From assembly GCA_963810095.1 (NCBI GenBank), contig CAWEMM010000006.1, positions 256,001 through 320,000 of the forward strand: a stretch of DNA of 64,000 nt, in the 5' to 3' direction. Below, one piece after another: positions 52,105 through 60,710 of this stretch. Both the position numbers and the translations under genes were made by a program. The stretch comes from an uncultured Chloroflexia bacterium. Lineage in GTDB: Bacteria > Chloroflexota > Anaerolineae > CG2-30-64-16. Positions within the stretch are counted from its first letter, which is position 1. Each line of letters begins with the position of its first letter. The notes under the pieces are model-generated. The model was not told the origin of the DNA and did not search any database. It worked only from the letters and a program-made list of their open reading frames with translations.

Positions 52105-52199
52105 CCGGATTATAGCATTTTGGCCCGCGGCGCGGTAATTACAGGGCGCGGTCAGCCATTTTGCAGTTGGCGCGGTTCGTGAAGGATGCTATAATCCGG
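52105..52199. promoter_or_regulatory. Divergent extended -10 promoters
   Basis: ATGCTATAATCCGG on both strands (52105-52118 minus; 52186-52199 plus). Confidence 0.6.
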
Positions 52200-52283
52200 A
52201 CGCGTCGCGTCATGTTACGTCGTCATCGACGACGCGCGCGTGGACTGTTCGCCGACCGTCATCGTATCGCCTCGGAGGTTGCC

Positions 52284-53693
52284 ATGTATCGACGCGGGAA
52301 GCGCCTTGGGGCGCGCCGCCTGCTGCCGTGGTTGGTGGCCCTTGTGCTGGTCCTCGCCCTTGCCGCGTGCACCCCTGCTACGACGCCCACCCCGGCCGCG
52401 CCGACCACTGCCGCACCTGCCGCGCCGACCGCTGTCGCAGCCGCCGGTGCAGGCACCGGTGCAGGCACCGCTGCAGGCACCGCTGCCCCAGGCGCGGCCA
52501 CGGGGGTGGCCCCTGCGACGCCGGGCGCCGCCGGCACTGGGGGAGGGACGCCGGCGGGCACCGCTGCCTCAGGCACCCCGGGCTCTCGCACGCCAACATT
52601 GACCCCGACGCCTGTGCCCACCCTCACCGAATTGCAGGCGCGGCTAATGCTGGCGAAGGCGTACCTCGACGGCAAAGACTACGAGAACGCTGCCACCCTA
52701 TACGCGCAGATCGCGCAAGACACGCGGGGCAATGCCGAAGCACTTCAGGGATTGCAGGCCGCCCTGGCCGGGAAAGCCGACATCCAGGCCACGCAGATGG
52801 CGCCGATCCCAACCGAGGCTCCCACCCCCGTGCCCACAGCCGTGCCCGCACCGACCCTGATGAGCGCGACCCGCTCCAAGGTGCTGGATGCGTTTGGCTT
52901 CGTCGTGGCCGCGCTCTTGCTCATCGCGTTACTTTACCTCTTCGGCGCGTTACTACGCTGGGTGCTGACCGCGCTGCGCGAACTCTGGTACATGCGGATC
53001 CTGCCGTTGTTCGGCCGTCCGGCCGTGCCGCCGGGCTTCCTGATTGGGGAGTTCGTCGGCTCGTGGACGACGGACGAGGAACTCGCCTCGCGGATCGTCC
53101 CGATCGCGATCACGCAGAAGCTGACCGAGTGGAACCAGTTGGTGCGCGACAAGCAGGCGCCGATCGAGCTGGAGCGGGAGCCGACCACGGGCGCGCTCGC
53201 CTGGCTGCGTGTGCTGTGGGCCTGGGTGCTGCCGCCGCCCCGAGGGTACCGCGTGACGGGCACCTTCCTTAAGGGCCCGGCCGGAACCCAGCAGATGACG
53301 GTGCAGCGCACGCACCTCGGACAGCACAGCGTGGACCGCAGCCGCACCTTCGAGAGCACGCGGGAGCCGGCCTCGGAAGCGTACGCAGACATGGCCTCCG
53401 AAGCGGGCAAGTGGCTGATCGTTCCTGCCGATATCGAGGCAGATGCCGCGATTGCCCTGGCTCGCGGCGCGGCCGGCGAGACGGTCTCGGCGAGTGCCAC
53501 ATTCGACGAGGTCCTCAACACCCTGCTGCCCGTGCGCCAGCAGGTCGACCAGGGACTTGTCGACTTCCCCGAGGCCCGGCGACGGATGACGCTGGCGGAG
53601 GGGTTGATCAACCGGCTGCCGGCCGACTCCGCCCTCCGCGCCGAGCTCACGCGCGTCTTTGCCGGCTTGCGGCGGGCCGTGCCCGGGGGTTGA
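52284..53693 (+). CDS. Hypothetical lipoprotein: Pro/Thr/Ala linker, TPR-like repeat, TM helix, C-terminal domain
   Basis: RBS ggagg, lipobox LALAAC, LAKAYLDGKDYENAATLY, hydrophobic FVVAALLLIALLYLFGALL. Confidence 0.72.
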   Translation: MYRRGKRLGARRLLPWLVALVLVLALAACTPATTPTPAAPTTAAPAAPTAVAAAGAGTGAGTAAGTAAPGAATGVAPATPGAAGTGGGTPAGTAASGTPGSRTPTLTPTPVPTLTELQARLMLAKAYLDGKDYENAATLYAQIAQDTRGNAEALQGLQAALAGKADIQATQMAPIPTEAPTPVPTAVPAPTLMSATRSKVLDAFGFVVAALLLIALLYLFGALLRWVLTALRELWYMRILPLFGRPAVPPGFLIGEFVGSWTTDEELASRIVPIAITQKLTEWNQLVRDKQAPIELEREPTTGALAWLRVLWAWVLPPPRGYRVTGTFLKGPAGTQQMTVQRTHLGQHSVDRSRTFESTREPASEAYADMASEAGKWLIVPADIEADAAIALARGAAGETVSASATFDEVLNTLLPVRQQVDQGLVDFPEARRRMTLAEGLINRLPADSALRAELTRVFAGLRRAVPGG

Positions 53694-57386: not shown

Positions 57387-57648
57387 ATGAGCGAACCGAT
57401 CGTGACGATTAGTGGGCAACGCGTCTGATCCACGGGGCCAAACCCCCGAAGCAGGCACTTCCTCTGAGCGGGGCGAACCAATCGACACGCAGGGCCGGCC
57501 CGTCTGGCTGACGGAAATGTCGCCCAGCGGCTGGGCAAGCGGCGGCAACGAGGAGACCTTCGAAGCCGGGCTGCCGTTCCTGGCCGGCCTGGTCGTCGTC
57601 GTCGCGCTTGTCGTCACCGTGCTCCTGATCCTGACTCGCCGCCGCTGA
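57387..57648 (+). CDS. Small single-pass membrane protein; start probably ATG 57387 with a frameshift near 57415
   Basis: RBS aggag then MSEPIVTIS; ORF 57412-57648 ends LAGLVVVVALVVTVLLILTRRR. Confidence 0.45.
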
Positions 57649-57812
57649 TCGTCTATCTCTGCAACGCTTCGTGAAAAAATACACCGCATAAACCATGACG
57701 AGCGTCATATAGTGCGCAAAGTTACAGGGCTTATAATGCATGTCTGCGACTTTCTGCACTATTTCACCATGCCGTAGTGCCATCTGAAGAACCATACGGA
57801 GGAGTAACCACG

Positions 57813-58913
57813 ATGACCCTTGCTTGCCCAGGCAGGCATCCCGTCCGGTGGTTGATCGTAGCGGGGCTGGCCGCCCTGCTTTTTGCCGCACTTGCCGCGG
57901 GCGCCAGCGCTCAAGCGGAAGGCGGGGATAACGCCACCTGTCTCGGCTGCCACTCGAACCCCGGGTTGAGCGTTGAGCTCGCCAGCGGTGAGACACTGCC
58001 GCTCACTGTGGATCCCCAGGTGTATCACTCATCTGTCCACGCAAACCTGACGTGTACGTCGTGCCATACGAACATCTCGGGTTACCCGCATCCCAAGCTG
58101 ACCGCGGGCGACCGCCGCTCGTTCCAACTCGAGCGCTACCAGCAGTGCAAGACCTGTCACCAGGACCAGTACATGCAGTCGCTGGACAGCAACCACGCTC
58201 GGGCACTTGCCGCGGGTAATCGGACCGCGGCAATCTGCACGGACTGCCACGGCGCACATAACGTCACCAAACCGGACCAGCCGCGCCAAAAGGTCTCCGA
58301 GACCTGCAAGAAGTGCCATAGCGTCATCCAGGACCAGTACGCGCACAGCGTCCACGGTGCGGCTCTCACAGACAACAGCAATCCCGACGTACCCGTCTGC
58401 ACCGACTGCCATGGCGCACACACGCAGGAAGACCCCACCACCGCCGCCTTCCGGCTCAAGTCGCCCAACATTTGCGGCGGCTGCCATGGCAATGCAGCCA
58501 TGATGCAGAAGTACGGCATTTCGACCGATGTCTTCAACACCTACGTGGCCGACTTCCACGGCACCACGGTCACGTTGTTTGAGAAGCAGCATCCGGATCA
58601 GCAGACCAACAAGGCCGTCTGCACCGACTGCCACGGCGTCCACAACATCCTCCCGGTCACCGATCAAAACGCGACGGTGGTCAAGGAGAACCTGCTGGCG
58701 ACGTGCAAGCGCTGCCATCCGGACGCGACGGCCAACTTCCCGAGCAGCTGGGTCGGCCACTTCCAGCCCAGCCGCACGAACCAGCCCTTGGTCTACTACG
58801 TGAACCTTTTCTATAAACTCCTGATTCCGGCCGTAATCGGCGGCATGGCGCTGTTCGTCGGTCTCGACGCAGTGAGCCGAATCGTCCGCCGCGTGCGGCG
58901 AAAGGGGGCGTGA
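57813..58913 (+). CDS. Nonaheme cytochrome c (signal peptide, C-terminal TM anchor), CbcL c-domain-like
   Basis: Nine CxxCH: CLGCH, CTSCH, CKTCH, CTDCH, CKKCH, CTDCH, CGGCH, CTDCH, CKRCH; RBS ggagg. Confidence 0.92.
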   Translation: MTLACPGRHPVRWLIVAGLAALLFAALAAGASAQAEGGDNATCLGCHSNPGLSVELASGETLPLTVDPQVYHSSVHANLTCTSCHTNISGYPHPKLTAGDRRSFQLERYQQCKTCHQDQYMQSLDSNHARALAAGNRTAAICTDCHGAHNVTKPDQPRQKVSETCKKCHSVIQDQYAHSVHGAALTDNSNPDVPVCTDCHGAHTQEDPTTAAFRLKSPNICGGCHGNAAMMQKYGISTDVFNTYVADFHGTTVTLFEKQHPDQQTNKAVCTDCHGVHNILPVTDQNATVVKENLLATCKRCHPDATANFPSSWVGHFQPSRTNQPLVYYVNLFYKLLIPAVIGGMALFVGLDAVSRIVRRVRRKGA

Positions 58914-58916
58914 TCC

Positions 58917-60602
58917 ATGGCGACCGCACAGACGACTGACAATCACGTCCCAAGCAAGACCTACTTCGAGCGTTTCACGCTGGCGCAGCGGATCGAGCAC
59001 ATCGTGCTGCTCGCCTCCTTTACCGCGCTGGCGCTCACCGGCCTCCCCCAGAAGTTCGCAGGGAACGCTGTTGCCGATACCCTCATCGCCTGGATGGGCG
59101 GGATCGAGGCGGTGCGCATCATCCACCGCATCGCCGCGGTGACCATCGTGCTGATGAGCGTGTATCACGTCATTGTCCTGGGCTACAAGATCTGGGTGCG
59201 CCGCGTCGAGATGACGATGCTGCCCGGCCTGAAAGACCTGACGGACGCACTCGACCTGGTGCTCTACAACCTGGGGCTCAACAAGTCACACCCCCGCATG
59301 CCGCGGTACAACTTCGGTGAGAAGGTCGAGTATTGGGCCATGGTGTGGGGCACGGTGGTCATGGCAATCACCGGGTTCATGCTGTGGAACCCCATCTCGA
59401 CCACTCGCTACCTGCCCGGCCAGGTTATCCCGGCCGCGAAGGCAGCACACGGCGGCGAGGCCGTGCTTGCCGTGCTGGCGATCCTCATCTGGCACTTCTA
59501 TAACGTGCACGTAAAGAGCCTGAACAAGAGCATGTTCAACGGCAAGATGTCGAAGCACCAGATGGAAGAAGAGCACGGCCACGAGCTGGAACAACGGCTG
59601 GCCGGCGAGACCCGACCCGCGCCGGATCCGGCGGGCGTGCGGCGCCGCGAGCGCATCTACCTGCCCGTTGCCATCGTGTTGGCGTTGATCGGCATCTTTG
59701 CCGTCTACCAGTTCGCCACCTTCGAGCAAACCGCGATTGCGACGCTGCCCGCGCCGATCGAGCGCCAGGAGGTCTTCACACCTCTCACGCCGACACCCGG
59801 CCCGAGCTTGACGCAGGTCGCGGCTGCGCTGATCCCGCACCCGATCAAGGGCCAGGAGCAGTGTGACACGTGCCACGGCCCGAACGGGATGAAGCCTTTC
59901 CCGGCGGATCACGCGGGCCGGCCAAACGAGTCGTGCACCGTCTGCCACCAGCCGGGTCCGACGCCAACGCCGGGCGCGGCCACGGAAACGGGCGGCCAAG
60001 CCGGCGTGCCAGCGGCCATCCCGCATCCGATCGAAGGCGATACCTACAAGGATTGCACGACGTGCCACGGCGAGGGCAAGATCAAGCCGTTCCCGGCCAA
60101 TCACACGTCCTTCCCCGTCGATTCGTGCACGGGCTGCCATAAGCCGGCCGCCAGCGGCGCGGCAACGCCAGAAGCTGCGGCTTCGCCGGCCGCGGGTGCT
60201 ACGGCAACGAGCGGCCAGGCCGCCGGTCCGGCCGCCATCCCGCATCCCATCGAAGGCGACATGTACAAGGACTGCACGACGTGCCACGGCGAAGGCAAGC
60301 TGAAGCCGTACCCGGCGAACCACACGTCGTTCACGGTGGATCAGTGCACGAGCTGCCACAAGCCGGCCGACACAACCGGGGCCACGGGCAGTAGCGGTTC
60401 GACCGGCGGTTCGACCGGCGGGACGAGCGGCGGCGCAGCGGCTGCGGCGCCCGTCATCCCGGCCAACCACGACCTGACCAGCCCGCTGTTCAAGGACTGC
60501 ACGACCTGCCACGGCGAGGGCAAGCTGAAGCCATTCCCGGCGAACCACGCAAGCTTCACCGTGGAGCAGTGCCAGACTTGCCATAAGCCGGCGGCGCAGT
60601 AG
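58917..60602 (+). CDS. FdnI/HydC-like cytochrome b fused to four diheme cytochrome c repeats (8 CxxCH)
   Basis: ERF..AQRIEH, IIHR, RYNFGEKVEYW, AHGGEAVLA...IWHFY; fifth TM helix; four repeats IPH...CxxCH...P.NH...CxxCH. Confidence 0.9.
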   Translation: MATAQTTDNHVPSKTYFERFTLAQRIEHIVLLASFTALALTGLPQKFAGNAVADTLIAWMGGIEAVRIIHRIAAVTIVLMSVYHVIVLGYKIWVRRVEMTMLPGLKDLTDALDLVLYNLGLNKSHPRMPRYNFGEKVEYWAMVWGTVVMAITGFMLWNPISTTRYLPGQVIPAAKAAHGGEAVLAVLAILIWHFYNVHVKSLNKSMFNGKMSKHQMEEEHGHELEQRLAGETRPAPDPAGVRRRERIYLPVAIVLALIGIFAVYQFATFEQTAIATLPAPIERQEVFTPLTPTPGPSLTQVAAALIPHPIKGQEQCDTCHGPNGMKPFPADHAGRPNESCTVCHQPGPTPTPGAATETGGQAGVPAAIPHPIEGDTYKDCTTCHGEGKIKPFPANHTSFPVDSCTGCHKPAASGAATPEAAASPAAGATATSGQAAGPAAIPHPIEGDMYKDCTTCHGEGKLKPYPANHTSFTVDQCTSCHKPADTTGATGSSGSTGGSTGGTSGGAAAAAPVIPANHDLTSPLFKDCTTCHGEGKLKPFPANHASFTVEQCQTCHKPAAQ

Positions 60603-60617
60603 GCGCGATAAGCAATA

Positions 60618-60710
60618 AGACCTGGTTTCTTCACGAAACCAGGTCTCCGGCAGACGATGATAAGAACCAGGTTCCTCTCGCCAATGGCGCCGAGAGGAAC
60701 CTGTTTTGTT
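60618..60710. repeat. Family B palindromes between convergent genes (possible terminator)
   Basis: agacctggtttc-ttcac-gaaaccaggtct and caggttcctctcg...cgagaggaacctg. Confidence 0.65.

Follow-up and report, generated by a model that had tools for sequence, protein, structure and literature searches.

A putative split quinol:multihaem cytochrome oxidoreductase of the Chloroflexota bearing a dihaem string of variable length

We have analysed a pair of genes from an uncultured bacterium of the Anaerolineae, phylum Chloroflexota, which encode a nine-haem cytochrome c (gene 1) and a membrane cytochrome b that is extended by a string of four dihaem cytochrome c modules (gene 2). The pair lies at 57813-60602 of a stretch of 64,000 nucleotides, here termed the window (G000:C6:256001-320000), within a source genome of 6.1 Mb that has a G+C content of 65% and a completeness of 88.5%. 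The interval is taken up by two co-directional open reading frames (ORFs), gene 1 followed by gene 2, and together these contain 17 CxxCH motifs, where shuffled sequences give fewer than 0.1. Judged from the sequences of the two proteins and their relatives, the pair is probably a split quinol:multihaem oxidoreductase of the CbcL/CbcBA type, peculiar in carrying a portable dihaem string of variable length.

Gene 1 (57813..58913, plus strand) encodes 366 amino acids within an ORF spanning 57777..58913; the likely start is the ATG at 57813, 8 nucleotides past a GGAGGAG sequence. The protein has nine CxxCH motifs, where shuffling of its residues gives 0.05 on average and never more than 2, and 18 of its 19 cysteines lie inside these motifs. 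Hydropathy shows two peaks, one at the N-terminus and the other at residues ~336-354. The first belongs to a signal peptide of residues 1-35 (57813..57917, plus strand), ending in AQA with the cleavage site judged by eye, and the second to a C-terminal anchor helix that contains no histidine and is followed by a basic cytoplasmic tail with the sequence RIVRRVRRKGA (58800..58880, plus strand). Nine histidines lie outside the haem-binding motifs. All nine are invariant in an alignment of 16 rows, while in a larger alignment of 55 rows eight are invariant and the ninth, H181, is nearly so. With nine additional conserved histidines available, all nine haems of gene 1 can be bis-histidine ligated.

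Relatives of gene 1 are plentiful, with 7221 of the 8000 candidates scored having E<=0.001. The best sequence match in the PDB is 28pb_A, a 278-residue chain named 'Cytochrome c' (E = 9e-5), with at least seven CxxCH motifs inside the displayed alignment with gene 1. This chain may be CbcA. A 2026 review (PMC13591261) gives the CbcA structure as 'PDB 2BPB', and 28pb_A may be that entry with its code mistyped. The PDB matches do not point to any one protein as the closest relative of gene 1; similar scores are obtained from 28pb_A, 6r2q_A, NrfB, NrfA, HAO and HMC.

Gene 2 (58917..60602, plus strand) begins 3 nucleotides past the stop codon of gene 1 and encodes 561 amino acids. Its residues 1-225 (58917..59591, plus strand) form a four-helix cytochrome b domain of the FdnI type, matching PF01292 with 47.6 bits against a cut-off of 30.1. 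This is the sole PF01292 match in the source genome. FdnI models lead the NCBIfam matches, and the alignment with Escherichia coli FdnI (1kqf_C; E = 4e-11) places H70 and H178 on the columns of His57 and His155, with H193 one residue past the column of His169. In alignment A3 of 55 sequences the histidines at positions 28, 70, 178 and 193 are invariant, and His84 nearly so. Transmembrane helices were counted by hydropathy in both genes, and gene 2 has five peaks, of which the fifth is the highest (2.29). This helix, residues 247-268 (59655..59720, plus strand), leads the chain to the outer face, and together with the E-x-T-A-I motif that follows it is retained in all inspected Chloroflexota relatives of gene 2. 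The predicted inner segments contain 20 lysine and arginine residues compared with 4 in the outer segments. This distribution, taken with the five hydropathy peaks, puts the N-terminus inside and everything past helix 5 outside. The attachment of c-type haem takes place at the outer face of the membrane. There are 3334 relatives of gene 2 at E<=0.001 among 8000 candidates scored, and the relatives of the two genes are named in the databases only as 'CXXCH cytochrome family protein' or 'formate dehydrogenase gamma subunit'.

Beyond helix 5 a Pro/Thr-rich stalk (59721..59819, plus strand), evident in sequence and hydropathy, leads to four modules of 46 amino acids, all on the plus strand, at 59820..59957, 60012..60149, 60231..60368 and 60456..60593; the protein ends two residues past the last of these. 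Each module has two CxxCH motifs separated by 24 residues, giving eight in the tail, and two extra invariant histidines. Module 1 is of a proximal type that is orthologous across species, and module 4 is of an IPANH type. The gaps between the modules are 18, 27 and 29 amino acids (16, 25 and 27 if the module bounds are set slightly longer), and the linkers are rich in Ala, Gly, Thr, Ser and Pro. At the nucleotide level Tandem Repeats Finder reports a period of 219 nucleotides with 2.6 copies and 76% matches. The amino acid identity is 83% between modules 2 and 3 and 38 to 62% for every other pair. Across 55 sequences all eight CxxCH motifs of the tail are invariant, as are six of the eight distal histidines, with H396 and H544 nearly so. 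Pfam relates the modules only to the generic family PF09699 (Paired_CXXCH_1), with scores close to its cut-off of 20.6 bits; module 1 scores 23.2, module 2 scores 19.4 and the whole tail 47.3 bits. The anatomy is that of the original prediction for this DNA, which had described gene 1 as a cytochrome c of nine haems that begins with a signal peptide and is anchored at its C-terminus, and gene 2 as an FdnI-type cytochrome b to which a fifth helix and, at matching positions, four external modules are added, with 17 c-haem motifs in all. It had called the modules near-identical, which the range of 38 to 83% shows to be an overstatement.

How constant is the string among relatives of gene 2? A survey of repeat number, suggested along with the original prediction, shows that the modules are fixed in their internal geometry and variable in nearly everything else. 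The spacing between the two motifs of a module has a median of 24 and a range of 24-28 (n = 458), whereas the spacing between modules has a median of 39 and a range of 25-102 (n = 344), and the linkers of the relatives are composed of 30% Ala, 18% Gly, 14% Pro and 13% Thr. Among the top 120 relatives the tail has 4 motifs in 5 proteins, 6 in 24, 8 in 55, 10 in 23 and 12 in 7, the remainder having odd motif counts or being truncated, so that the number of modules ranges from two to six. In the Chloroflexota relatives inspected, helix 5 may be followed by nothing at all, by a single dihaem module, by two to six of them, or by a linker and a monohaem domain of class-I-like type. Distal modules are alike within a species. 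Thus there are three identical copies in locus L002 (11102-11677) and two in L004 (1881-2213), which points to very recent tandem duplication or to homogenisation by gene conversion.

These features bear on the physical nature of the string. The four modules could pack together and on gene 1 as a rigid and continuous haem wire, with the Ala/Gly/Pro/Thr stretches as surface loops. Such a structure would resemble most of the characterised multihaem conduits, which the available text of PMC11520253 describes as closely packed chains, and the spacing within modules and all the ligands are strictly conserved. Yet low-complexity stretches of such variable length, a module number that changes from two to six among close relatives, and distal modules homogenised within species sit more comfortably with beads that are independent of one another than with an interface that is fixed. 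We therefore regard the rigid wire as unlikely, and a flexible chain would be the better description of the tail.

The association of the two genes is close. Each of the 32 loci found with gene 2 has gene 1 immediately ahead of it, and one database protein of Chloroflexota type (P0116; 891 amino acids, 15 motifs) is a natural fusion of gene 1 with gene 2. Fused ORFs comprising both the c and the b parts are found in the Acidobacteriota, Verrucomicrobiota, KSB1 and many other phyla; these are 605-1111 amino acids long, contain 9-21 motifs and align over both parts, the c part being 31-33% identical to gene 1 (E ~1e-37). At least 580 such fused loci in other phyla were confirmed per profile scan. 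In three scans of genome contigs with fused relatives, the best 80 of at least 580-596 confirmed matches all come from uncultured metagenome-assembled genomes (MAGs), and no named Geobacter, Gallionella, Dechloromonas or Rhodoferax is among those 80. On these grounds gene 1 and gene 2 are best regarded as one unit, as the original prediction had taken them to be.

The relationship between split and fused forms was analysed in a tree of 60 rows based on the b domain. All 26 split forms of Chloroflexota type make up one clade with a Shimodaira-Hasegawa-like approximate likelihood ratio test (SH-aLRT) support of 100. The sister group (support 94) has six helices and includes both fused and split forms, and the clade is separate from a second fused group of 24 rows. 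The 10 rows with at least four tail motifs all fall in one clade (support 91). Of 401 genomes sampled from the phylum, 33 contain a homologue of the b domain (E<=1e-20); one family accounts for 17 of these, from 24 genomes.

What might such a complex do? On balance we think it probable that the two proteins form a membrane complex of the bc-type quinol:multihaem-cytochrome oxidoreductase kind, in which the tail takes the place, on a tether, of soluble carriers of the periplasm. The b domain of gene 2 would hold two b haems and exchange electrons with the menaquinone pool at a quinone site that, by analogy with FdnI, would lie near the inner face. The b haems would pass electrons across the membrane to the c haems at the outer face, which would comprise the nine bis-histidine haems of gene 1 and the eight bis-histidine haems of the tail, one or other of these being the first to receive them. 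Gene 1 would be held beside the b subunit by its own C-terminal helix. The tail could then serve as a covalently tethered carrier, making contact with multihaem cytochromes of the wall zone or surface that are encoded elsewhere, or with external acceptors or donors.

The envelope of the organism is important in this proposal. Neither Omp85 nor LpxC was found in the source genome at its completeness of 88.5%, which is consistent with a cell that has no classical outer membrane, and with the monoderm envelope assumed in the original prediction. In the absence of an outer membrane soluble carriers such as PpcA of Geobacter would be lost, and for this reason we read the tail as a tethered substitute. 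The source genome contains candidates for a surface partner, namely two decahaem proteins with MtrC/MtrF domains and a c7-type polymer with 18 motifs, and it encodes other multihaem proteins besides.

The gene for the c7-type polymer, a 407-amino acid ORF with 18 CxxCH motifs, lies 14 kb past the end of the window at L113:7706-9416 (plus strand; G000:C6:333705-335415). It overlaps an ORF of 217 amino acids with three motifs in another frame, and a single gene with a frameshift, or with its start mis-set, may underlie both.

The tail is not restricted to the cytochrome b scaffold. A further copy in the source genome is found at L114:5096-7285 (minus strand; G000:C2:13092-15284), in a protein of 730 amino acids and 15 motifs with an anchor of the NapC/NirT type at its N-terminus. 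It ends in a four-module tail like that of gene 2, to which it is 39% identical over 262 amino acids (E = 6e-44). At locus L016 a protein like that of L114, with the same tail, directly follows the gene pair. More generally, the tail used as a query against 1.84 billion representatives matched 625 proteins at E<=0.001, 47 of them at E<=1e-30. Among the 41 tail-bearing representatives of at least 430 amino acids, PF01292 is present in 9, a NapC/NirT N-terminal region in 11, Cytochrome_CBB3 in 11 and an MtrC/MtrF-type region in 22. Two decahaem genes with a domain of the MtrC/MtrF type, one of them above the Pfam cut-off, lie 5-10 kb from the L114 gene.

These observations allow a bolder proposal, which we advance tentatively and hold to be somewhat less than evenly likely. 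The tail might be a new built-in shuttle, made of tethered dihaem beads with a tunable copy number, that works by tethered diffusion, replaces soluble periplasmic cytochromes in those Chloroflexota without an outer membrane and is portable across membrane redox scaffolds. There would be at least three of these scaffolds: the FdnI-type cytochrome b, proteins of the NapC/NirT type and class-I cytochrome c proteins. The number of beads, from two to six, would be set by tandem duplication to the wall distance to be bridged.

The surroundings of the pair differ between tail lengths. In the window and at L001-L006, L008 and L009 no other ORF within 5 kb has as many as two motifs, and at L007 there is none with at least four motifs within this distance. 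Of 16 short-tailed Chloroflexota loci, by contrast, 15 carry between one and three additional ORFs with at least four motifs within 5 kb, compared with none of the 10 long-tailed loci. Taking all non-syntenic loci together, 20 of 24 have another such ORF within 5 kb. Ten of these multihaem neighbours were sampled, and proved to be cytochromes with MtrC/MtrF domains, of c7 type, or with NapC/NirT anchors. The non-cytochrome neighbours comprised 90 ORFs at 18 related loci, and the families that recur in them are those of cytochrome c maturation (Cytochrom_C_asm 5, CcmE 3, CcmF_C 2) and two-component regulators; molybdoenzyme, NiFe hydrogenase and nitrite-reductase families do not occur among the top 25. 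Nor does a catalytic subunit recur among the 10 sampled multihaem neighbours, and none adjoins the pair in the window, as noted in the original prediction. The consistent clustering with a catalytic subunit that the original prediction had named as counting against it is thus not seen in this sample. A carrier on a tether fits with the varying number of beads, with linkers of low complexity, with a portable tail and with the loss of cytochrome neighbours from the long-tailed clade.

A number of points nevertheless weigh against that proposal. The pair sits amid housekeeping genes, with that for valyl-tRNA synthetase (ValRS) upstream, and downstream a zinc-dependent alcohol dehydrogenase (ADH) gene on the minus strand and then one of glycoside hydrolase family 4 (GH4). 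This order is kept in eight loci of Anaerolineae-type MAGs, of which L004 is too short for ValRS to be visible, and no electron-export gene cluster surrounds the pair. On contig C2, which bears the L114 gene, the multihaem genes are interleaved with those for enolase, a P-type ATPase and DUF6062, and this weakens an interpretation of that contig as an island for extracellular electron transfer. The contrast in neighbouring cytochromes between short and long tails counts as about one evolutionary event, because the long-tailed forms make up one clade. The class-I-like monohaem tails of related gene 2 proteins suggest partners with a higher potential, for instance oxidases. COX1 is present in three copies in the source genome, which also encodes five proteins of the NrfD family and a single bc-type cytochrome b; two of these cytochrome b and NrfD-type complexes lie close to pentahaem genes and COX1 genes. 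In all likelihood the organism can live as a facultative aerobe and has the usual quinol:cytochrome c routes. The existence of such routes makes a special task for the gene pair likelier, and also means that the pair would not be the sole enzyme of its kind. Lastly, FdnI reduces quinone in FDH-N, and the pair may therefore run inward.

If it did, the complex would operate mainly as a quinone reductase, supplied by an external donor, which could be Fe(II), a cathode, a partner cell or reduced humics. Electrons would pass by way of the tail and gene 1 to menaquinone at the inner face and so provide half of an energy-conserving redox loop, with the oxidases and NrfHA of the genome as possible sinks. 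Besides the FdnI-type b domain, two reports lend this some weight. The available text of a 2018 survey (PMC6295460) places homologues of CbcL, MtoC and MtrH in Fe(II) oxidisers as well as Fe(III) reducers, with no feature that tells the direction, and Ardenticatena maritima, a cultured monoderm of the phylum, gives both anodic and cathodic current according to the accessible part of PMC5808234. However, sequence does not fix the direction, and 17 c haems that appear to be bis-histidine ligated would suit export as well as uptake from a low-potential donor. No known Fe(II)-oxidation gene stands beside the pair in the loci read. A predominantly inward flow seems to us improbable.

Alternatively the pair could be a general respiratory quinol:cytochrome c oxidoreductase with no extracellular acceptor, the tail taking the role of the membrane-anchored cytochrome c of bacteria that lack a closed periplasm and feeding the haem-copper oxidases or nitrite reductase of the same cell. 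The housekeeping neighbourhood in eight syntenic loci, with no adjoining regulator, would agree with this, as would the three COX1 genes and NrfHA, the class-I-like monohaem domain that forms a single tail in related gene 2 proteins, and the presence of Cytochrome_CBB3 in those 11 of 41 long tail-bearing proteins. We consider it the least likely of the alternatives, given that the bc-type cytochrome b complex and the NrfD-type complexes are already present, two of them close to pentahaem and COX1 genes, that NrfA has its own NrfH, that the short-tailed relatives adjoin large MtrC/MtrF-domain and c7-type multihaem cytochromes rather than oxidases, and that 17 bis-histidine haems would be far above the need of a simple oxidase carrier.

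The nitrite reductase genes are located on another contig, at L117:4186-6128 (plus strand; G000:C10:228185-230130), where an NrfH-like tetrahaem gene is followed by that for a pentahaem NrfA (PF02335, 482 bits). From these genes the organism probably has the ability to reduce nitrite to ammonium.

Several other features accompany the gene pair. Long ORFs antisense to the two genes have no Pfam match, and their G+C content at third codon positions (GC3) is 0.58-0.61 compared with 0.81-0.86 for the two genes. Upstream, at 57412..57648 on the plus strand, a small ORF encodes 78 amino acids with a C-terminal hydrophobic helix. It gives tblastn matches with E values of 4e-22 to 3e-15 in L001-L003, stronger than those of the antisense frames, and equivalents with a C-terminal helix occupy the same place in L001, L002, L003, L005, L006, L008 and L009. 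A Pfam search with this ORF gave no match. Both its sequence and its position upstream of gene 1 are conserved, and it may be part of the gene 1/gene 2 unit. The ORF occupies the gap of ~960 bp between ValRS and gene 1; its closest relatives share the motif TEMSPSGW..GGNEE, and the copy in the window is without an N-terminal 'TIGG' stretch that the relatives have. Further upstream, at 52161-53693 (plus strand), is a 510-amino acid protein consisting of a helix and then a long Ala/Gly/Thr/Pro stalk that resembles the linkers of the tail. It has no Pfam match, and is kept upstream of ValRS in L001, L002, L003, L008 and L009.

A hairpin at 60617..60647, with a stem of 13 bp, lies between the convergent gene 2 and ADH genes. 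It is terminator-like and was scored as a hit on the minus strand, and with one such site compared with 2.4 expected from shuffled sequences it is weak on its own. Rfam gave only sub-threshold miRNA noise upstream of the pair, and a scan for sigma-70 promoters found none on the plus strand ahead of gene 1. Two soil metatranscriptome runs of one study contain contigs identical to parts of gene 1 (245 nucleotides) and of gene 2 (186 nucleotides), together with many contigs from relatives. This is a weak hint that the pair is expressed in soil, as contigs from RNA libraries neither prove transcription nor give its level.

Outside the Chloroflexota many genomes have two neighbouring paralogous genes that resemble c+b quinol oxidases. 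These were seen at L026, L027, L028, L030, L036, L039, L045, L052, L055, L062, L072, L084, L101 and L108, one member of each pair having five helices and the other six helices and 11-21 motifs. In addition, the MAG labels of L007, L072/L123, L201, L215, L251 and L209 conflict with the kinship of the genes. Thus a contig labelled 'Acidobacteriota' bears a gene pair of Chloroflexota type, and contigs labelled 'Bifidobacterium', 'Pseudomonadales' and 'Hyphomicrobiales' bear fused cytochromes like those of the Verrucomicrobiota or Bacteroidota. Mis-binning is the likely reason, and transfer a possible one.

The Anaerolineae and their relatives in the Chloroflexota rank with the most abundant bacteria of sediments, soils and digesters, and their handling of electrons at the surface is almost unknown. 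The gene pair is common, with thousands of relatives of each gene. If our reading is right, it would serve to mark the quinone-linked exchange of electrons with the exterior in a phylum for which the 2018 survey (PMC6295460), in the part available, lists no CbcL-type enzyme, its CbcL/MtoC/MtrH homologues being spread over 15 phyla with none in the Chloroflexi. It would also give a second example of tethered haem domains, here anchored to a membrane, of a mechanism that has so far been shown for PgcA (PMC11520253, as far as its available text goes), and a modular haem string of variable length that could be used in engineered conduits of single-membrane bacteria. Were the tail indeed a portable shuttle, the Anaerolineae would have a route of electron export or uptake of their own design.

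How does the gene pair relate to systems already known? Its likeness to CbcL and CbcBA is drawn from published descriptors rather than from alignment with the Geobacter sequences. In the parts of the literature available to us CbcL is described as a single protein with nine CxxCH motifs in its N-terminal half, all nine c haems being bis-histidine ligated, and six helices in the half towards its C-terminus, where a dihaem b domain resembling HydC and FdnI has two histidines in one helix as in formate dehydrogenase. The bis-histidine ligation accompanies low potentials, and in Geobacter the electrons are handed to the soluble trihaem PpcA. The gene pair shares with CbcL the nine bis-histidine c haems outside, the FdnI-type dihaem b domain, the order of c before b and the total of six helices, here divided as one and five. 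Helix by helix, His28, His70/84 and His178 with His193 of gene 2 fit helices 2, 3 and 5 of CbcL, while helix 1, which is the anchor of gene 1, is without histidine. Moreover, fused relatives of the pair occur in phyla that are also listed in the available part of PMC6295460, those in common being the Acidobacteria, Verrucomicrobia, Ignavibacteriae, Bacteroidetes, Calditrichaeota, Elusimicrobia and Planctomycetes. Unlike CbcL, the pair is made as two polypeptides, with a stop codon and 3 nucleotides between them, and four dihaem modules are added past the sixth helix. A further difference is found in the anchor helix of gene 1, where the Chloroflexota alignments A2 and A4 have no conserved histidine, whereas in the fused relatives a histidine in this helix is invariant.

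In the division into two proteins the pair is closer to CbcBA. According to the text available, CbcA has seven haems and a C-terminal helix that gives the fourth histidine for the b haems, CbcB is a four-helix protein with three histidines, and the authors mention cbcB-cbcA fusions in Chloroflexi genomes. In both systems the multihaem c subunit, which has a C-terminal helix, and the dihaem b subunit are separate proteins with neighbouring genes. The systems differ in the number of haems (nine in gene 1 compared with seven in CbcA) and of helices (five in gene 2 compared with four in CbcB), and in that gene 2 has its own set of histidines while the anchor of gene 1 has none; CbcBA is also without a tail. 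The operon of CbcBA is subject to regulation of the sigma-54/BccR type, and no such regulator lies beside the gene pair, where no search for a sigma-54 motif was made. The original prediction of a split CbcL thus holds for the nine haems, the FdnI-like b domain and the six helices, but not for the anchor histidine, which is missing, and the split arrangement is one already known from CbcBA.

The likeness to FdnI itself lies in the four-helix dihaem cytochrome b with the shared His57 and His155 columns. Gene 2 nonetheless falls far below the NCBIfam equivalog cut-offs (53.7 vs 339 bits and 52 vs 115.85 bits), no FdnG, FdnH or molybdoenzyme gene is adjacent, and the protein is extended by its fifth helix and the c-haem tail. 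The modules of that tail had also been likened to NapB, with which they have in common two CxxCH motifs and bis-histidine ligation. Kinship with NapB was rejected, since a profile of 31 modules matched 3ml1_B with an E value of 0.14 over only 21 positions (2-22) around the first CxxCH.

Outside subscription journals and supplements, which lay beyond our search, we found no published description of a cytochrome b fused to a dihaem string. The analogies for the tail are with tethered carriers of other kinds. The cytochrome c_y of Rhodobacter is a carrier on a membrane helix with a flexible linker, although it has one haem, is a separate protein and serves oxidases. The likeness is no more than an analogy, the point in common being that the carrier is tethered rather than freely diffusing, as we propose for the tail. 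PgcA of G. sulfurreducens consists of haem domains and low-complexity linkers and is proposed to work by tethered diffusion, as described in the available parts of PMC11520253 and PMC10570954. The tail of gene 2 is like it in having small haem domains parted by low-complexity linkers. PgcA, however, occurs free outside the cell and has (PT)x linkers and three domains of one haem each, whereas in gene 2 the beads are dihaem, the linkers are rich in Ala and Gly, and the string is fused to a membrane protein that would itself contain the site for quinol.

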